Assembly (NCBI GenBank): GCA_027001995.1
Contig: JALTLO010000155.1
Location: 1-11,344, forward strand
Length of the DNA: 11,344 nucleotides
From: Planctomycetota bacterium
Lineage (GTDB): Bacteria; Planctomycetota; GCA-002687715; DRQF01
Direction of reading: 5' to 3'
Shown here: in pieces, positions 2,567 to 11,093 of the stretch
Layout: each line of letters opens with the position of its first letter
Numbering within the stretch: the first letter of the stretch is position 1
The notes under the pieces: generated by a model
What the model was told of the DNA's origin: nothing
Seen by the model: only the letters and a program-made list of their open reading frames with translations
Database searches by the model: none
Translations under genes and position numbers: made by a program

Positions 2567-3232
2567 TCAGGATCCTCGGAAGACTCTGTGGGTCCAGATA
2601 TCAAACATATGGAGCAAAGATCCATCAGCCCCTGAGTACACGACCACCCGGCCAGCTTGAGGGATCGTGGAGTTTGACGATGCGGCATCAGAAATTCCAA
2701 TAATCACATCATCGAAGCCATCGTTATTGACATCGCCGGCTCCACTGACGGAATTGCCAAACGTATCACCCATCTGTGTGCCAAAGAAAGAATAGAGCAG
2801 GCTGCCGTCGAACCCGGAGTAGACCCATGCGCTCCCGCCATTCTGGGCGAGAGTACCGTCAAAATGAGCTCCGATGATGAGGTCTGCGTAGCCATCTTGA
2901 TTGACATCCCCAGCATCGCTCACTACCGCGCCAAAGAAATCGCCGGCGGAATTGCCATAGAAAGTATAAAGGATGCTGCCATCTAGGCCGCTAAAGACGC
3001 GAGCACTCCCAGAATCTTTCCCCAAGTCGTCATCCCGAAAGGCGCCAACGATCACATCATCGAAGCCATCGTTGTTAACGTCGCCAGATCCACTCACACT
3101 TCTTCCCAAATTGTCGAAGGTCACTGGTCCGCTATAAGCGTACGCACCACTGAATTGACCTAAACAAGTGAGGCCCAACGACCCCACGCTGAGAACAACG
3201 ACCATAGTCAATTTGGCAATTCGATTCGTCAT
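2567..3232 (-). CDS. Secreted FG-GAP (integrin alpha beta-propeller-type) repeat protein, probably C-terminally truncated
   Basis: The signal-like N-terminus MTNRIAKLTMVVVLSVGSLGLTCLGQ starts at ATG 3232 with purine-rich GGAAGAGGG upstream. Three repeats follow: GDVNNDGFDDVIVGA, GDVNQDGYADLIIGA and GDVNNDGFDDVIIGI. Confidence 0.85.
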   Translation of the reverse strand: MTNRIAKLTMVVVLSVGSLGLTCLGQFSGAYAYSGPVTFDNLGRSVSGSGDVNNDGFDDVIVGAFRDDDLGKDSGSARVFSGLDGSILYTFYGNSAGDFFGAVVSDAGDVNQDGYADLIIGAHFDGTLAQNGGSAWVYSGFDGSLLYSFFGTQMGDTFGNSVSGAGDVNNDGFDDVIIGISDAASSNSTIPQAGRVVVYSGADGSLLHMFDIWTHRVFRGS

Positions 3233-3341
3233 TTTGAAGGGCCCTCTTCCTGTTGATGAAATGATGCTCATTATCATAGGCGTAATGAGGCCAAGATCGT
3301 TACGGGAATTCTAATAGTAATTCGGAATCGCAACGGGTACG

Positions 3342-3374
3342 AAAAAGCGGGGATTCACCGAAGTGAATCCCCGC
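3342..3374 (-). terminator. Rho-independent terminator of the HMA-like gene
   Basis: The minus strand reads GCGGGGATTCAC-TTCG-GTGAATCCCCGC-TTTTT: a perfect 12-bp stem, a cUUCGg tetraloop and a U-tract, 22 nt after the TAA at 3397. Confidence 0.9.
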
Positions 3375-3396: not shown

Positions 3397-3990
3397 TTAG
3401 TTCTTGCTGACTGGCTTGGCCTTCTTAACCAAAACGCGTGTACTGAAAGCAGTCACTTTGAAGCGACGATCTTTCTGGATCAGCTTGGTGGCGCTATCTT
3501 TGGAGAGAACTCCAGACTTGCTGGCGCGCACAAAAACCTTATGGGTGTCACCGTGGGGATAGGCGACGATGACGCCATCTTTCTTTTCGAGCATCGCACG
3601 GATGCTCTTAGCTGTCTTCTGTCAGGCAAGGCCTTTCACGGAGATCTCATAGACCTCATGGGCCACGGCCCGTGAACTCTTAGTCACTGCGGAGACTTTG
3701 AGTCCGCGACCAAGGGCCTTGTTGATGGCGTCAACAGTGGGTGCTTTGCCGTTTTTCGTCTTAATGACACCACGGGCTGTGGTGTCTACCATGGCGTTTT
3801 CTACGTTTTCCATCTTTGCGAGAGCCACACGGGCTTTCTTGGCCATATCGGCCGCTCCTCAGTTAGCGATCCCGCTGATCTGAACAAGATAGACTGTTTC
3901 GGTCTTTGACTGCTTCTTGGTGTCGACTTGAGCCCCAAGGGACAAGCACGTGACAGCAAAAAGAGCAGCAAGAAGAGCTGATGTCTTCAT
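3397..3990 (-). CDS. Secreted tandem heavy-metal-associated (HMA/MerP/CopZ-like) domain protein with two in-frame TGA codons, putative selenoprotein (197 aa; U44, U123)
   Basis: An AAGGAG RBS precedes ATG 3990 and the signal peptide MKTSALLAALFAVTCLSLGA-Q. One frame continues through TGA 3861-3859 (TVYLVQISGIAN-U-GAADMAKKARVALAKMENVENAMVD) and TGA 3624-3622 (EVYEISVKGLA-U-QKTAKSIRAMLEKKDGVIVA) to TAA 3399-3397 and the terminator. This joins track ORFs 3622..3846 and 3397..3594. Confidence 0.8.
3589..3607 (-). promoter_or_regulatory. Candidate bacterial SECIS hairpin for the second UGA
   Basis: Minus strand GAGCATC-CGTGC-GATGCTC, a perfect 7-bp stem. The loop begins 21 nt after the UGA, has G in position 2, and is nearly identical to the loop of the first hairpin (CGTGY). 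Confidence 0.7.
3820..3838 (-). promoter_or_regulatory. Candidate bacterial SECIS hairpin for the first UGA
   Basis: Minus strand GAAAGCC-CGTGT-GGCTCTC (AGCC/GGCT core stem, extended past one mismatch). The loop begins 27 nt after the UGA and has G in position 2. Confidence 0.55.
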
Positions 3991-4017
3991 TTACAAACTC
4001 CTTGGAAACTGATGTTG

Positions 4018-4044: not shown

Positions 4045-4643
4045 AACTCATCTATCTAACACGCCCCATGCAGAACGATTCACGAATTCACCCAGCAAAG
4101 GCAAAATTCCTGAGCGCCGAAGAAAATAATTGGTCTCGGGAGATCGGCGTTGTTGGACCGGAAGCGACATAAGAGCCGTCAAGCAAAGGCATTATGAATA
4201 ACTATTCTCATCTTCGAAGACCTTTTGTTCGGCCCAAGAATGGGGAGCAAAAACATCAGTTCTCATGGCCAATTGAGATTGCAAAGGCCAACAGGGAATA
4301 TCTGCTCTTCCGAGAAATCGAAATCGCAAGGCTCTGGAGCCAAGAATGGAAACTTGGGTTTTTTCTCAGCCAAACTCACACCACAACGTGGGCTCCGTAC
4401 CGAATAGTGCTGGCAAGCCAATTCCAGCCCTGACTTTGATGATGGTCAGAGATTTGTTGGAGCAATTCCACAAAGCCGTAATTTCCTGCCGTACGACTTT
4501 CTGTCCCGGAGTCCATTGGCCCCGATTGAATACGCTCCCACCGAACATCGGCTTGCACCTTATGTAGGAGTGAGGTCCTGGTCGTTGCCTGTTGGGCCTA
4601 GGTGGTCCAACAGAATCCTTCCCGTTCGAAAAGGAGCTCCCCG

Positions 4644-6158
4644 ATGAGATTGTTCAATCACATCTGCGCCCCCGCGCTCATTCTCCTGATGGCCTTTGCC
4701 GTGCCAGTCTTTTCCCAGGTCGACGTTTCTTGCTTGTCCATTGACGCGCCAAGTATAAACGCCTTAGATTGCACCACCCTCTTGAGCCAGAACGAATCGA
4801 TCTCAGTGACGATTCGTAACGAAGCGAATGCCTCCATCCTCTCAGGTACGTTTCTGCAATTTGATGTCCGAGTCAACGGTGCCATCGTTTTGTCAGAGTT
4901 TTTCGCCTTAGTCAATGACCTCAACTCAGGGGCCACTTTGCCTTTGACTCTTGTTGGCAAAGTCGATCTTTCGGCCTTAGGCAACCATACTTTAGATGTC
5001 ACCTGTTTGGCACCAATGGATGCAAACCCAGCCAACGATATGGCCAGCATTACCTACTCCAACCCTGGTGCTCTGCCTCAGACTGTTGGCTACGTTGAGG
5101 ACTTCAACAGTCTGCCCTCCAATGGTGGAGCATTCTCCCCCACCATCTTTGATGTGCCCCCGGGATGGAATAACGATGGGTCTGACGCTGCCAGCCTAGC
5201 TGGCAATACGGTTCCTGATTGGGCACCCAACGACAACACAACTGGTTCGAATCAAGGTCCTTTGGCTGATCACAGCACCGGTGCGGGTATCTACATGTAT
5301 CTGGAGGATTCGCCATCTCAGGTGGGAGACGTTGAGCTGTCCTCACCCTGCTTAGACACCCAAAGTGCCCAATCTCAACCGCGAGCGAGTTTTTGGTATG
5401 TGAGCCGTGAATCTGCGGGTTCCACAGCGGACAACATCCTTAACATCGATATTGTTGACGAAGACAGTGGGGGCGTTGTCACTCTTGCCATTGTTGCCTT
5501 GCCGGGTAATGGCTCTACTGATTGGGTGCGCCAATCAATCGATTTATCTGCCTTTGCCCCAAGCCGGGTTCGAGTCATCTTCAGGGCCAACAATAACAAT
5601 GGCACTTTCACCGACGACATTGCCATCGACGTTTTTTCTTTCTTTGACTTCGTTCCTGGACTCGGCCAAGCACCAAGAACCTCGATTGCGACCTTCGACA
5701 TGAACGGAGCGCTCAACGCCACCGGCGACAATATCGCTACCGATGCCAAAGGCCCCTACTTCGCCAGCATGACTGTGGGTGCGAACCTGAATATGAGCTG
5801 GAGCGGATCGCCCAACCAGCCCATGGCCTGCCTCTACGGCAACATGAATCTCAAGTCTGCCACTTACGGCGCTGCCATCGGGCAGACAGACATTGGTGGC
5901 CCAGGCGTTGATGTCAACGGCTATCCCTTGAATCTACAAATCTTCGGCGATGGATTTGCCTGGTTGAGGAATCCTGGTTTCTCAAACCAAGACGCCTTCT
6001 TCTTCACCGGCAGTAGTGGAATCGGTGGATTCGGTGCCGTTGTCCCCAACCTTGGCCTCCCACCGGGCACTGTCGTCACATCGATGCAATGCCTGATGGC
6101 CGACCCTGTGGCGCCATTCTTCCGCTTGTCCAACGCCATCGAATTGACCGTGTTCTAA
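4644..6158 (+). CDS. Secreted/surface protein with a CARDB/Ig-like N-terminal domain, a MAM-like domain and an uncharacterised C-terminal domain
   Basis: An AAAGGAG RBS precedes ATG 4644 and a signal peptide ending VFS-Q. Ig-like segment: ISVTIRNE...GNHTLDVT...DANPAND. MAM-like motifs: GPLADHSTGAGIYMYLE, ELSSPCLD, SFWY, WVRQSIDLS, DIAID. Confidence 0.85.
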   Translation: MRLFNHICAPALILLMAFAVPVFSQVDVSCLSIDAPSINALDCTTLLSQNESISVTIRNEANASILSGTFLQFDVRVNGAIVLSEFFALVNDLNSGATLPLTLVGKVDLSALGNHTLDVTCLAPMDANPANDMASITYSNPGALPQTVGYVEDFNSLPSNGGAFSPTIFDVPPGWNNDGSDAASLAGNTVPDWAPNDNTTGSNQGPLADHSTGAGIYMYLEDSPSQVGDVELSSPCLDTQSAQSQPRASFWYVSRESAGSTADNILNIDIVDEDSGGVVTLAIVALPGNGSTDWVRQSIDLSAFAPSRVRVIFRANNNNGTFTDDIAIDVFSFFDFVPGLGQAPRTSIATFDMNGALNATGDNIATDAKGPYFASMTVGANLNMSWSGSPNQPMACLYGNMNLKSATYGAAIGQTDIGGPGVDVNGYPLNLQIFGDGFAWLRNPGFSNQDAFFFTGSSGIGGFGAVVPNLGLPPGTVVTSMQCLMADPVAPFFRLSNAIELTVF

Positions 6159-6274: not shown

Positions 6275-7600
6275 TTAATTGTCAATCAAGTGAGAAAGAT
6301 CACCAACGGCCTCGTCCAAATCGGCATAGCCATTGCTTACTTTCTTCATCATCATTCCATTGCCCTTGCGGGTTTCCTCACGACTGTAACCATCGGGCCC
6401 AGGTTTGATCGCGATCGAACGGTTGGTGTCGCCCCCCATGTCTTTGAGGAGTCGCCCGCCCATGGATTCTTTCTTGAAACGATCCATTTCCTTGGGCAAC
6501 AAGATTGCCGCAAGGTCACGATTCCATCCCGTTTGAATGCGGCTCCAATCTTTCTCCCAAGTTGGAATTTCAATTTGATAGCCGTCGTCGGTTTCTTTGA
6601 CCACCGCGTGAATCTTCTCTTGCTCTTTGATCTTTTCTTCAAGCTGCTCAAAAGCAGCCACAAGAGCTTCTTCTCGCGCAGGCTCTAAGTCCAGCAATTT
6701 TGCAATGTCCCGAGGCCCGGCTTTTTCTTCTAGTTGGGCACCTTCAGCTTGACGTTTCTTGAAGTCTGCCACGGATGCTTCGACCTTCTCTTTTTCTTGA
6801 CGAAGGGACGCCATTTCCTCGGCCTGACTTGCTTTCGCCGTCGACAATTCTTTCACTTTCGCTTGAAGATTCTTGATCAAATCCGCTTGTTTCGCGAACG
6901 CCATTTCCCCTTCTTCTCCCCGAGGAACCCGACGGGGAACAATGCCTACGCGCAAGTCATCTTTGTCATCCCCTCGCGAGACATGAGCCGTTTCGCCTGG
7001 CCCAATTTGGTCGGCGTCGCCACCATCACCGCGAAACACAACAGCCCCTACCAGAACGCCGACAGTCAAAATTCCTGCTGAACTCAAAACACTCTTAGGG
7101 TCCACGGCTCTCTCCTCTTCGTACGACACATGAAAACTTGCATTCTTCGTAATAACGGATCCAAAATCGGTAACCACTTCAAAAGCCTCTCTTCCCGGCG
7201 ACACATCCAAACCGATGCCGCCTTCATAAAGGCGAATAAGACGGGGGCCAAGAAACTCATAGCGAGCTTCGGGTGACAAGGCAGAGACGAGGGCTCGGTC
7301 TGAGACCCTATCGTTCTTGACTTGCTTCAGATTCATTCGCTCGGAGCCATAAGCCCCCAAGAAAATCGCAATCAAAAACAAGGCCAACGCCATCACGGGC
7401 TTTGGCACGGGCCGTCGTTCTTTGAGATCTACCCTGTCAGTCACCTTCGTCAACGAAGCCTCCAGCGCCTGAACTTGGCTCAAAGAAGTCCTGCACCTGG
7501 AGCAGGCAAGAAGATGTTTAGAAACCGACGCCTCCTCATCTTCCACTAAGGCTCTTAGCTGCCAGGATTCAAGAAGTTCTTCGACTTCTGGACATTTCAT
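6275..7600 (-). CDS. Anti-sigma factor: zf-HC2 (ZAS) zinc finger, TM helix, FecR-like domain, coiled coil
   Basis: ATG 7600 overlaps the sigma stop (ATGA) and has GGAGG upstream. MKCPEVEELL...HLLACSRC gives the HxxxCxxC motif, followed by TM VMALALFLIAIFLGAYG and FecR-like RLYEG...FEVVTDFGSVITKNASFHV...VGVLVGAV. A heptad-rich segment reads LIKNLQAKVKELSTAK...LRQEKEKVEASV. Confidence 0.85.
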   Translation of the reverse strand: MKCPEVEELLESWQLRALVEDEEASVSKHLLACSRCRTSLSQVQALEASLTKVTDRVDLKERRPVPKPVMALALFLIAIFLGAYGSERMNLKQVKNDRVSDRALVSALSPEARYEFLGPRLIRLYEGGIGLDVSPGREAFEVVTDFGSVITKNASFHVSYEEERAVDPKSVLSSAGILTVGVLVGAVVFRGDGGDADQIGPGETAHVSRGDDKDDLRVGIVPRRVPRGEEGEMAFAKQADLIKNLQAKVKELSTAKASQAEEMASLRQEKEKVEASVADFKKRQAEGAQLEEKAGPRDIAKLLDLEPAREEALVAAFEQLEEKIKEQEKIHAVVKETDDGYQIEIPTWEKDWSRIQTGWNRDLAAILLPKEMDRFKKESMGGRLLKDMGGDTNRSIAIKPGPDGYSREETRKGNGMMMKKVSNGYADLDEAVGDLSHLIDN

Positions 7601-8103
7601 TTCCACTGCCCTCCTATGGTCTTCCTCAATGTGGCCAAACCCCGGGCGACCCATGTTCTGACGGTTCTCTCTGGACAATCGAACACGACCGCCAACTCTG
7701 TGAAAGAACAGTTTTCCAAATAGCGTAAACGAACTGCGCTGCTATAGGGCTCGCGGAGGTCATGAACGGCAGCTCGTAGTTCTTCCTTGGCGATCTTTGA
7801 GATGGTTTGGGCGGCAACCCTTTCTTGGTTCGCCCCCAGTTTCTTCTCCACCCGTCCACGCAAGCGATCAATAGACCGGCGCTTCACCACTTGCATCAGC
7901 CAAGCCTCAGGCCGGCGAGGTTTTGGGCCTTGATACTTGGTTAGGGTGAGAAAGACTTCATGAACCACATCTTCGGCGTCATCCCGATCGTTGACGACCT
8001 TCTGTGCTCGGGCGATCAGCTGATCACGAAGACCAAGAGCCTGATCGAGCAGGCTCGGCCCTTCGCGCCTACGACCTTGATGTGATGTAGTTGTGTCATT
8101 CAT
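7597..8103 (-). CDS. ECF (sigma-70 group 4) RNA polymerase sigma factor
   Basis: Region 2 reads DAEDVVHEVFL...AWLMQVVKRRSIDRLR and region 4 reads AVHDLREPYSSAVRLRYLENCSFTELAVVFDCPERTVRTWVARGLATLR. The start is either ATG 8103 or ATG 8145. Confidence 0.93.
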   Translation of the reverse strand: MNDTTTSHQGRRREGPSLLDQALGLRDQLIARAQKVVNDRDDAEDVVHEVFLTLTKYQGPKPRRPEAWLMQVVKRRSIDRLRGRVEKKLGANQERVAAQTISKIAKEELRAAVHDLREPYSSAVRLRYLENCSFTELAVVFDCPERTVRTWVARGLATLRKTIGGQWK

Positions 8104-8255
8104 AGCGTCATGGGGATGACGCAGGCGGTCACACTTTTGACTCATTCTTTGCGAAAAATGACGGATTTCGGCATGAAAGCGGAGTTGCTACGCGAATCCA
8201 ACCCGCCAATCCTCAAATGTGGGTAGATCCGCTGAACCAACCAGGGGATTGAGCC

Positions 8256-8424: not shown

Positions 8425-9189
8425 TCACTTTCCCATCTCTCTTGATGTGCTTTTCATTGCTTGCAGTCGAACTCGCTCCGAGATGTCGGCGCGAGACGCA
8501 AGTTTCAATGCTTTGAAAACGATGTTGCTCTTCCGGGCAAAAGTAGACAATGACTCAGCTGCCTCTTCGCGCACCATGCTGCTGTTAGCCGACCGCAGAA
8601 ACCGCATGAGTGGCTCGACAAACCGTTCATCGTCAATGCCGCTTATCAAGCGCAACACTCGTAACTGCGATGTTGCATCAATCGAACCATTGAGAACCCC
8701 AAGCGCGAACGTTCGCGCATCGTCTGGCAATTCGTTGCTTACGCCCCGCACCATTTGCAGCGCCATGACCCTCTCTTTTTCAGGGAGGCTCTCATTCGAG
8801 ACGCGTTGGAGATACAGATTCGACACTTTTCCACGAAAGTCTGAATTCGCTGTTTGTCCTAAGTCACGTGAGATTTCAATCTTCTTTGACAGCAGGCCTT
8901 CAACCGTTGCTTCCATTCCCTGGAGCCTCTCCAAGGCAATTTGTTGAGGAGATCTCAATGGGCCAATTGCGACAGCATCTTGCGACATTTCTTGGGTCGC
9001 CCGATTTTCCAGATCAGTCAGTTTCGTCTTCAAGTCCGCCAAACGAACATTCAAGTCATCCAATCGTCCCTCAGAGATTTCGAATGAGTATTCACTTAGC
9101 GTCTCCTCTGTATCTTCCATGCCGCGAAACACGGACAGAATAGACACCACGAACGCCCCAAAGATAAAGAAGTAGATGAAGAAATTCAT
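8425..9189 (-). CDS. Membrane-anchored coiled-coil + HEAT (PBS-lyase-like) repeat protein, paralog 3
   Basis: A GAGGGAG RBS precedes ATG 9189. N-terminal TM MNFFIYFFIFGAFVVSILSVF, coiled coil LDDLNVRLADLKTKLTDLENR, HEAT motifs VEPLMRFLRSANSSMVREEAAESL and DISERVRLQA. Confidence 0.8.
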   Translation of the reverse strand: MNFFIYFFIFGAFVVSILSVFRGMEDTEETLSEYSFEISEGRLDDLNVRLADLKTKLTDLENRATQEMSQDAVAIGPLRSPQQIALERLQGMEATVEGLLSKKIEISRDLGQTANSDFRGKVSNLYLQRVSNESLPEKERVMALQMVRGVSNELPDDARTFALGVLNGSIDATSQLRVLRLISGIDDERFVEPLMRFLRSANSSMVREEAAESLSTFARKSNIVFKALKLASRADISERVRLQAMKSTSREMGK

Positions 9190-9301
9190 CAAGTTCGCTC
9201 CCTCAACATTCACAAAATTATTGTCTGCACGAAAAAATTGGACAAGAATCTCCACTGCAGAAGACTGCCCCAAGGACACCACTTTCAGTGGGCACTTTTC
9301 A

Positions 9302-10060
9302 TCATTTATCTCTTTCGCCAAGGCTCTTCTGGGCTTGGGCTCTAACCGCAATTGACGCATCGCTTGCAATCGCAGACTTCAGAGCATTTATGACCTCAAG
9401 ATCGTCGGAAAAAAAGGACAAACTCTCTGCCGCTTCTTCGCGCGCTTGCGCAGCAGTGTCACTACAGAGCGCTTTGATCAATATTGCCTTAAACTCCGGA
9501 TGCCCAATGCCCTTTATGTATCGTAGAATATTTACACGACATGCCACATTGCCTGGGGCAAAGGCAAATTTCTTGACAAATTCAATGACCTCTTTGTCAA
9601 AGGCCATTGAGTTCCCTCGAAGATATCCCATGTGAAATACTCGCTCCGTCAATGGCAAGGAATCATCCAGAACCTTATTTCGCCGAAACTGCCAGTAGGT
9701 CCAACTAGATCCAACTGATGCGTTTTTCCTTTGGGCAACTCCGCTCTTCAAAATCCGATTCAATTTCGCCTCCAAATTGTTCAATTTCTCTGGTGACAAT
9801 TCGGTGGGTTGTGGTGAACTTGCTGCGATGTCAGTTGGCTCCCTGGAGTTCAGAGACAACTCGCAAAGATCAATTCTTTGTTCCATCGTTGATACTTGTG
9901 ATTCGAAGCTATTGATTGCACGCCTAAGCTCCTGATCGACGTTCGAATTCTCATTTGATTGGTTGCCACCCGAAGCGTTGCAATAGTCCACGATACATAA
10001 AACGAATGCGCCCGCACTCAAGAAGAGAAGAAACCAACGGTTCTTTTTCTGAAAACTCAT
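9302..10060 (-). CDS. Membrane-anchored coiled-coil + HEAT repeat protein, paralog 2
   Basis: ATG 10060 overlaps the upstream stop (ATGA) and has GGAG upstream. TM RWFLLFLSAGAFVLCIV, a coiled coil, then HEAT motifs LIKALCSDTAAQAREEAAESL and DASIAVRAQAQKSL. Confidence 0.82.
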   Translation of the reverse strand: MSFQKKNRWFLLFLSAGAFVLCIVDYCNASGGNQSNENSNVDQELRRAINSFESQVSTMEQRIDLCELSLNSREPTDIAASSPQPTELSPEKLNNLEAKLNRILKSGVAQRKNASVGSSWTYWQFRRNKVLDDSLPLTERVFHMGYLRGNSMAFDKEVIEFVKKFAFAPGNVACRVNILRYIKGIGHPEFKAILIKALCSDTAAQAREEAAESLSFFSDDLEVINALKSAIASDASIAVRAQAQKSLGERDK

Positions 10061-10833
10061 CTTGTGCGCTCCAATACGATCTCTGACCAATTGCGAACTT
10101 GGGGCGAAGGATCATTGAGAGACACCTTGAGGCTTTCTCTCACAACGTCCGAATTTGCATAGCTGCGAAGCTCTCGAACCGAACGTTCGCGAATCTCTGA
10201 TGCAGAACTATTGTGCAAATTATCCAATAGAAAGTCCCTCACAACATCGCTTTCAAATCGAGCGATTGCTTTCATCATTCTTGGCCTTCGTTTTCCCAAT
10301 CCACCAAAATAAAACATTCGAATACCGACCAAGGCTAGCGCGTCAGATTTGAGAAAGTTGGGGAATTCAGCACACTCTTCAAAAGCGGAAAGCCTCATCT
10401 CCATATCTAACGAAGGATCTTCAATTCTTGACCGAATGGCTGCCGCTTTGGTGACAAGAAGGTCGAATTCCAGCAGTCCCAATTCAATTCCTTCGATCAT
10501 TTCGCCATTCGAATAGGCCAAAGCACTTTCGAGTTGAACCAAGTTGAGCTCCAGTCTTCTCGTCCTCTCCTGGAGCTCAAGCCCTGTTGTGTCGCCCCTC
10601 ATTTGATTGACTCGCGTTGAGTATTTCTTCCATTTGAGCAAGAGACTATTCATTTGCTTGGTGGTCTTCATCCCTGCGACGAGCAACGAGTCCCTTTTTC
10701 GCTTCATTTGCGAATTGACCATCTCAACCTCTTGCCCATTCTTGGCGATGCGTTGTTTCTGCGCCAGAAATGACCCGAAGTTGATCACCGCAAGGATGAG
10801 CAGGGAGCCCATTACATAGTGAGTTATCTTCAT
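10057..10833 (-). CDS. Membrane-anchored coiled-coil + HEAT repeat protein, paralog 1
   Basis: ATG 10833 overlaps the upstream stop (ATGA) and has GGAG upstream. TM YVMGSLLILAVINFGSFLA, a coiled coil, then HEAT motifs LLDNLHNSSASEIRERSVREL and SLNDPSPQVRNWSEIVL. Confidence 0.8.
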   Translation of the reverse strand: MKITHYVMGSLLILAVINFGSFLAQKQRIAKNGQEVEMVNSQMKRKRDSLLVAGMKTTKQMNSLLLKWKKYSTRVNQMRGDTTGLELQERTRRLELNLVQLESALAYSNGEMIEGIELGLLEFDLLVTKAAAIRSRIEDPSLDMEMRLSAFEECAEFPNFLKSDALALVGIRMFYFGGLGKRRPRMMKAIARFESDVVRDFLLDNLHNSSASEIRERSVRELRSYANSDVVRESLKVSLNDPSPQVRNWSEIVLERTR

Positions 10834-11093
10834 GAGTCGAACGCTCCGCCAAAAACAGATGCCCAAGGCACTAGATAGAGTTCCATCAAGAAAAATACGA
10901 ACAGAAAGGCAATTCGAGTTCGCCATTGTTCTGCTGAATCAACCTGAGAATAGCCCATGATACACAACAACCAACCAAACCCTATGACGGTTGCAATCGG
11001 GTAGGTAGTAATCAGAAAAATGACCAATAGAAACTGCCGAATTCTTCGCGCAGTTCTCCATTTCATGGGCAATACAAACAATATCCCAATCAA
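10830..11093 (-). CDS. Small hypothetical membrane protein (2-3 TM helices); start uncertain
   Basis: Hydrophobic helices FLLVIFLITTYPIATVIGFGWLLCIMGY and IAFLFVFFLMELYLVPWASVF. The stop is coupled by an ATGA overlap to the next gene, and GAGG precedes TTG 11093. Confidence 0.55.
   Translation of the reverse strand: MIGILFVLPMKWRTARRIRQFLLVIFLITTYPIATVIGFGWLLCIMGYSQVDSAEQWRTRIAFLFVFFLMELYLVPWASVFGGAFDS

Follow-up and report, generated by a model that had tools for sequence, protein, structure and literature searches.

A predicted exported selenoprotein family of tandem HMA-fold domains in Planctomycetota, with a copy on T4-like phage contigs

Introduction

Selenocysteine (Sec) is already known from proteins of the heavy-metal-associated (HMA) type. 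In the portion available, the 119-family selenoprotein table of PMC13188914 includes NF041115, with a UxxU motif, and P1B-type ATPases with UxxC, the former entered in its Table 1 as a ‘putative mercuric reductase’ with two Sec; a MerP selenoprotein is recorded in the accessible part of PMC2398784. Judged by names and motifs, the same portion of the 119-family table has no entry for an exported tandem form with a lone Sec in each domain, and the Sec–HMA literature compared here also included the available parts of bioRxiv 2022.07.06.499078, PMC13326102 and PMC9312934. The string ‘Planctomyc’ is absent from the main text of the selenoprotein reviews and of the BSepDB paper, as far as these were accessible, though SelA is common in our sample of the phylum.

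Among viruses, selenoproteins are recorded as the glutathione peroxidases of the molluscum contagiosum and fowlpox poxviruses (PMC8310308, accessible text), and tRNA-Sec has been predicted in Basilisk-like Bacillus phages (PMC6145125, accessible text). For families other than RNR II, plastocyanin and Cu–Zn SOD, the available part of PMC9402790 reports no or very few viral sequences. In a literature consisting mostly of freely accessible main texts, we found no phage-encoded selenoprotein.

Here we analyse a gene in an 11,344-nucleotide stretch of a Planctomycetota genome (assembly GCA_027001995.1, contig JALTLO010000155.1), hereafter the window. We put at roughly 60% the probability of the reading as a whole, namely that the gene belongs to an exported HMA family with lone Sec residues and no Cys counterpart, which would bind soft metals between two selenolates of separate domains or molecules, and which a T4-like marine phage of Planctomycetota keeps, with both hairpins, under purifying selection.

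One gene read through two in-frame TGA codons

The gene occupies 3397..3990 of the minus strand and runs from ATG (3990) to TAA (3397) as 197 codons plus the stop, in a single frame whose sole interruptions are TGA codons 44 (3859..3861, minus) and 123 (3622..3624, minus); this delimitation rests on direct reading, homologs and dN/dS. The initial annotation had joined three apparent fragments into one gene with TGA at these two codons without naming a strand, and the minus-strand frame confirms it; two of the fragments are the 74-aa (3622-3846) and 65-aa (3397-3594) pieces of the ORF track. A plus-strand reading of 3397-3990 was ruled out, as it meets four stops and holds no gene.

The flanking signals proposed earlier were also found. 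A Shine–Dalgarno sequence, AAGGAG (3998..4003, minus), is read directly 7 nt 5′ of the ATG, and just 3′ of the gene stands a terminator-like hairpin followed by a T run (3341..3374, minus), the hairpin itself (3347-3374, UUCG loop) having a folding energy of −29.2 kcal/mol (z −5.4; 0 of 200 shuffles equally stable). The first residues, about 1-20 (3931..3990, minus), form a predicted Sec-pathway signal peptide with a basic N-terminal end, a hydrophobic core (12-residue KD 2.6) and low pLDDT at residues 1-25; from this leader sequence the protein is probably exported, and the cleavage site is likewise a prediction. The sole Cys of the 197-codon protein sits in the signal peptide, leaving the mature protein free of Cys, and the protein is strongly basic (pI about 10, net charge +20).

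That the two halves are paralogous, with their TGAs at equivalent sites, is borne out at the level of profiles, which align by HHalign (97.2%, E 4.6e-11) and bring the two TGA columns to a distance of no more than about one position; the single sequences of the halves gave no alignment in pairwise BLASTP.

A family conserved across both TGA codons

A search with the read-through protein matched 17 of 61 relatives, 18 of the 23 genomes of the window's class (though none of the five of one family) and, in the phylum sample, 62 of 401 genomes, the weaker of these last being probably ordinary HMA domains; no further copy was found in the window's own genome. The set taken for closer study comprises 42 genes of 36 Planctomycetota genomes: 24 belong to the class and 18 are the best matches outside it, weaker matches being left out. 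These carry 81 in-frame TGA sites together with nine domains that have neither TGA nor Cys; none of the 42 has Cys at the aligned TGA position, and no Cys-bearing member of the tandem family was found. It had been proposed to look for homologs with either a conserved TGA or Cys at the aligned sites, and only the first kind turned up within the tandem family. With no Cys version detected, methods that depend on Sec/Cys pairs would miss this family.

A further search gave matches in 20 of 61 genomes (four already counted), and all 20 matches have exactly two TGA codons. The TGA of codon 44 is invariant in 27 of 27 rows of alignment A2, the rows of which were chosen as TGA-bearing tandem members. 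Compared with a same-genus gene, dN/dS is 0.21 before, 0.30 between and 0.26 after the TGAs, and selection, as judged from these sequences, is purifying past both of them. Together, the constant pair of TGAs and the ratios of 0.21-0.30 in all three segments uphold the argument that two such codons are beyond chance.

Close relatives are stored in databases as 43- and 74-aa pieces that end at the two TGAs. A full-library protein search returned nine matches, comprising eight fragments and one form with Trp, and a domain-1 profile search returned four, all Trp forms, while word-indexed protein searches with the single protein or with alignment A2 returned none because the databases hold the gene in pieces. 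Automated annotation thus misses the gene, as had been anticipated, leaving either pieces or Trp forms; we conclude that this is a real selenoprotein gene, until now split by annotation.

Several groups of relatives depart from the tandem plan. A sister group (L054, L056, L058, L059, L061, L062, L063, L078) comprises exported Sec–HMA proteins that have between one and three domains and whose motifs, UxxxC or UxxxU, exceed CxxC by one residue; it falls below the NCBIfam cut-offs where scanned (four of the group, including L035). In the three-domain members L031, L033, L037, L076 and L082, a Cys stands in the β2–β3 hairpin of the first domain, where it is a possible alternative partner for Sec, and L037, L076 and L082 have lost Sec and the RNA hairpin together in domains 2-3. 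More widely, there is a gradual passage among relatives to UxxC, UxxxC and UxxxU forms, which give scores with the CopZ, MerP and MerA models.

Decoding of the TGA codons

The genes that the initial annotation proposed to look for are all encoded in the window's genome (92% complete): SelA, SelD and tRNA-Sec stand together on one contig (C148), SelB on another (C17), and the SelD gene itself has an in-frame TGA. SelA occurs in 36 of 36 carrier genomes and in about 295-298 of the 401 genomes of the phylum sample; since it is so common there, its co-occurrence with the family is weak evidence. Very probably, SelB and tRNA-Sec would decode each UGA with one downstream hairpin guiding each, Sec insertion itself being predicted from these components.

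That the locus encodes no selenoprotein, and is instead a pseudogene, an assembly error or a gene whose TGA is read as Trp or Gly, is very improbable and largely refuted. Full-length database forms with W at both sites do exist (P0008, P0030-P0032), but these come from short contigs and fall into clusters alongside truncated forms of 38 and 66 aa, and the DNA of one W-form cluster (nine loci read) has TGA at these sites and TGG at true Trp; the Trp homologs named at the outset as grounds against a selenoprotein are TGA in DNA wherever checked. A Trp reading is further opposed by the tRNAs of the genome, in which tRNA-Trp reads CCA and the only tRNA with a TCA anticodon is tRNA-Sec. Three gene pairs show dN/dS of 0.08-0.52 in every segment, and the covariation of the hairpin described below speaks against pseudogene, error and Trp reading alike. 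A contig from a second study spans the gene, differing at 58 of 748 bases and aligning without gaps, a comparison between assembled contigs that bears on indels.

SECIS-like hairpins

Past codon 123, a 7-bp stem with loop CGUGC 21 nt after the UGA (hairpin 2; 3589..3607, minus) is the minimum-energy fold. Past codon 44, hairpin 1 (3820..3838, minus; loop CGUGU 27 nt after the UGA) pairs at 6 of 7 positions, the remaining one being a mismatch, and an alternative fold is preferred to it, so that it is not the minimum-energy fold in the window's genome. Both agree with the bSECIS model set out in the available text of PMC13188914, which asks for a loop of 3-9 nt with G in its first two positions, 16-37 nt after the UGA, and a stem of at least 4 bp. 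Taken singly, neither of the two exceeds shuffled sequences in stability (z −1.1 and −1.6).

Across the family, most sites have a hairpin with a CGUG(N) loop 18-27 nt past the TGA. An Arg codon coincides with part of the loop at 76 sites (five sites lack this Arg) and is CGT at 70 of them, whereas among the remaining Arg codons of these genes 44 of 260 are CGT. On average 6.6 of 7 pairs form, compared with 4.6 in synonymous shuffles; pairing is significant singly at 38 of the 76 sites, but not at the two of the window (p 0.13 and 0.07). A CGTG loop was found in none of the nine Sec-less domains. Across 20 selected sequences, hairpin 2 is paired in 140 of 140 cells and 6 of its 7 pairs have changed on both sides, giving a covariation of 0.807 against 0.333 when shuffled (0 of 500 shuffles reach it) and at most 0.118 in slid controls, the structure having been derived from the same sequences and the kin not being independent. 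At three sites the loop Arg is replaced (L022 site 1, in genome record G001; L031 site 2; L074 site 1), and the L022 and L031 loops, AGUUC or GGUUC, keep G within their first two positions; these Arg-replaced sites suggest that the RNA loop, rather than Arg, is the conserved element.

The CGUG motif follows 569 of the 206,150 TGA triplets in the window's genome. It is also seen past an in-frame TGA in two long UxxC genes, one near 6615 of contig C179 (minus strand; 393 and 220 open codons on either side of the TGA) and one near 25072 of contig C20 (plus strand; 688 and 110). The two presumably resemble a DUF3179 protein and a DsbD-like thioredoxin domain. The SelD gene's own hairpin has no CGUG loop.

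Predicted fold and metal site

AlphaFold2 models the whole protein (mean pLDDT 86.5, pTM 0.76) as two β-α-β-β-α-β domains, the two ferredoxin-like folds that had been expected: domain 1 (3667..3903, minus; residues about 30-108; pLDDT 89.4) and domain 2 (3430..3660, minus; residues about 111-187; Pfam HMA E 0.0015) both model as HMA folds, with each predicted Sec placed where helix 1 begins. The closest structures to domain 1 are 4a48 (Z 9.0, rmsd 1.9 over 64 residues) and ZntA (1mwz, Z 8.8), and those to domain 2 are Ccc2a (1fvq, Z 11.1, rmsd 1.7 over 72 residues) and ATP7B (6a71, Z 10.9); the best Foldseek matches are the tandem HMA regions of ATP7B and CopA. Against Pfam HMA (PF00403) the window protein scores 19.3 bits with a gathering threshold of 24.8, and 14 of 16 family members match at E ≤0.01.

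The earlier placing of the TGAs at the first HMA Cys holds, in that the family profile aligns Sec with the first Cys of CopA and ATP7B domains; predicted Sec2 aligns with the first Cys of MxCxxC, and Ala takes the position of the second, while predicted Sec1 is without a partner Cys. Neither window site has C or U within the four residues after Sec, and the same is true of 55 of the 81 family sites. Of the metal-binding HMA motif that had been claimed, then, the first-Cys site stands and the second Cys is absent, hence metal binding by the window protein is something we infer.

A copy on T4-like phage contigs

Nothing in these results is more surprising than the phage-borne copy. With a Trp-form homolog as query we recovered 10 metagenome loci, nine at 38-42% GC (computed for eight of the nine) and one at 57%, and one IMG/VR contig, L123. 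The latter carries an intact family gene (L123:139-690, plus) in which codons 39 and 121 are TGA and the two hairpins are both present, the protein being 34% identical to that of the window, and the gene lies 3.2 kb from a terminase large subunit (phrog_2, E 3e-47) and a portal gene (phrog_213). The family gene is also on L109, L110, L111, L112, L113, L115, L116 and at the end of L130/G419; L111, L112 and L123 are near-identical and count once, and several contigs overlap in varied arrangements. The full gene and hallmark genes occur together on only one 7-kb contig type. G419 is a 98.5-kb IMG/VR record (CheckV 87%) with major head, sheath, baseplate and polymerase genes and a terminase 66% identical; the record ends within the first 22 codons of the family gene, and in it we found no tRNA, and so no tRNA-Sec, and no further SECIS-like match. 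Among 81 viral loci the family occurs only in L123 and as the cut copy in L130, with none in four larger related phage records; the family had no match in 50,697 GenBank phage records, and the window protein as query had none in viral contigs.

In these phages TGA serves as a stop codon and Trp is encoded by TGG: seven of 25 long ORFs end in TGA, and the same ORFs hold 123 TGG Trp codons. In a tree of 38 rows, from which single-domain, partial and one-Sec three-domain members were left out, the phage copies nest inside the Planctomycetota family, with support of 99/96 for the grouping with L114 and 100/98 for that with family f46. Their GC3 of 0.37-0.38, compared with 0.68 in L114, the nearest and apparently cellular relative, indicates amelioration, and a dN/dS of 0.10 between phage copies indicates purifying selection. 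A T4-like phage would have captured and kept the gene, and would need a Sec-decoding host to make the protein; from the tree and the neighbouring HEAT-repeat gene, that Sec-competent host may well be one of the Planctomycetota. The neighbour in question is an exported HEAT-repeat gene directly upstream of the family gene (L109:594-2519; L130:9530-11452), with GroES nearby. Its protein is 45-46% identical to genes of the window's order, which are its best matches in a 121-genome sample, and it is probably a second captured host envelope gene.

If true, this would be a bacteriophage-encoded selenoprotein made through host Sec recoding, of which we found no instance in print. One implication of the phage copy is that selenoproteins can be borne by bacteriophages; another is that an in-frame TGA in a phage gene does not always signal code reassignment. 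The type of SECIS may also help to assign phages to hosts.

Proposed function and its alternatives

We favour, at about even odds, a role as a periplasmic scavenger or buffer of soft metals such as Cu(I), Hg(II) or Ag(I). In each domain a single selenolate would stand at the beginning of helix 1, where CopZ and MerP have their first metal ligand, and in the proposed geometry two such selenolates, contributed by the two domains or by two molecules, would hold the metal; in UxxxC relatives, Sec and a Cys one turn later may form an alternative ligand set. A site that has given up the intramolecular CxxC pair would be spared the oxidation of that pair to a disulfide in the periplasm. Counting against the metal-binding role is that the mature window protein offers no second ligand. 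A lone Sec in an HMA loop would provide a clean test of what selenium contributes to such a metal site.

A periplasmic redox catalyst, in which the HMA fold is a scaffold and Sec a nucleophile that reduces peroxides or oxidized envelope thiols, seems possible and rather less likely. Sec would be resolved by the other Sec, as a diselenide, or by the Cys at +4 where present, and such a UxxxC is found in domain 2 of nine of 15 core class members. Asp and Thr are invariant in the β2–β3 hairpin of domain 1, lone-Sec sites appear to resemble peroxidatic sites, and in two congeneric genomes a thioredoxin-like gene adjoins the family gene. A redox role is assumed for most selenoprotein families (PMC13188914, accessible text), and Cu–Zn SOD and plastocyanin are carried by marine viruses (PMC9402790, accessible text). 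However, all top structural matches are metal-trafficking HMA domains, and no conserved reductase partner occurs in the neighbourhoods examined. We know of no HMA-fold oxidoreductase.

The genomic neighbourhood does not discriminate between functions. Among 82 neighbour proteins in 20 loci of 9-17 kb, collected with a strict ORF filter that will have missed some, we found no metal transporter, reductase or metal regulator, and none lies within the window; the only HMA match among the neighbours is part of a family member itself. No neighbour cluster recurs in more than four of the 20 loci, and no partner is widely shared. The window's own neighbours lie at 771-2468, 2567-3277, 6275-8145 and 8425-10926 on the minus strand and at 4602-6158 on the plus strand, and are of such types as a Ser/Thr kinase with TPR, an FG-GAP protein, an exported MAM-domain protein, an ECF sigma factor with a zf-HC2 anti-sigma factor, and three HEAT-repeat proteins. 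The kinase and FG-GAP ORFs look short at their 3′ ends, the kinase stopping inside the TPR and being followed by a 165-aa ORF, and both are possibly split genes.

Two other roles appear improbable to a similar degree. The first is that an exported protein with one to three Sec per chain banks selenium or hands it over to envelope proteins, for which selenoprotein P offers an analogy. Members with three Sec (L031, L033, L054, L078) and the presence of lone Sec without a partner fit this role, but there are only two Sec per about 180 residues, placed strictly at HMA ligand sites, and the loci examined have no linkage to sel genes. The second is an envelope adaptor binding protein or polyanion, in which the basic HMA domains would attach to a partner and Sec would make a mixed Se–S link; the partner might be the exported HEAT-repeat protein or a phage receptor, in which case the phage would alter the host surface. 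The net charge of the window protein accords with such docking, CxxC-less HMA domains serve as protein-binding modules (rice HMA–effector complexes are among the structure matches), and the gene directly follows the HEAT-repeat gene on several phage contigs. Yet on phage contig L113 no HEAT gene lies between GroES and the family gene, tblastn with the phage HEAT protein found no match beside the cellular family genes in 21 loci, and several family members are acidic.

Comparison with known systems

The window protein is HMA metal-site-like and is not a member of CopZ, MerP or NF041115, and no curated model matched it. It shares with MerP, CopZ, CopA and ATP7B the same predicted fold (Z 9-11), with Sec at the place of their first Cys, and is exported like MerP, by prediction, and tandem like the N-terminus of CopA. 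Unlike MerP and CopZ it has Sec for Cys and no CxxC pair, falls below all cut-offs, and has no mer or cop genes nearby, mer genes being absent from the window and from the 82 scanned neighbour proteins; against MerP (TIGR02052) it scores 20.4 bits with a cut-off of 92.55, and it has two domains to MerP's one.

NF041115 (UxxU_metal_bind) resembles it in having an HMA-like domain, Sec in the metal loop and two Sec per chain, and is its best NCBIfam match, at 20.8 bits with a cut-off of 95. That model, however, describes one 74-position domain with both Sec in a single UxxU, whereas the window protein lacks UxxU and has two domains with one Sec each and no partner. NF045683, a heavy-metal transport selenoprotein like a MerT/CopZ fusion, shares with the window protein the use of Sec in heavy-metal trafficking, as do the P1B-ATPase UxxC form (TIGR01525) and the GOS ‘MerP’ selenoprotein of PMC2398784 (accessible text). 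The window protein differs from NF045683 and the P1B-ATPases in being without a membrane transporter part and in consisting of stand-alone exported tandem domains; NF045683 (cut-off 375) matches seven of 16 family members weakly and the window protein not at all at E 0.01, and the model of the latter has no membrane segment. The suggestion that this may be an undescribed selenoprotein family thus stands for the tandem lone-Sec form, which has no curated model, and does not extend to Sec in HMA domains, which was known already. What is added is a selenoprotein family that gene callers split into 43- and 74-aa pieces or mistranslate with Trp.

Among viral systems, the Basilisk-like Bacillus phages concern a predicted tRNA and not a selenoprotein. 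The poxvirus glutathione peroxidases are like the phage copy in being host-derived Sec genes in a virus that require host recoding; the phage copy differs from them in belonging to a bacteriophage and in having bacterial in-frame SECIS elements, two Sec residues and an HMA fold.
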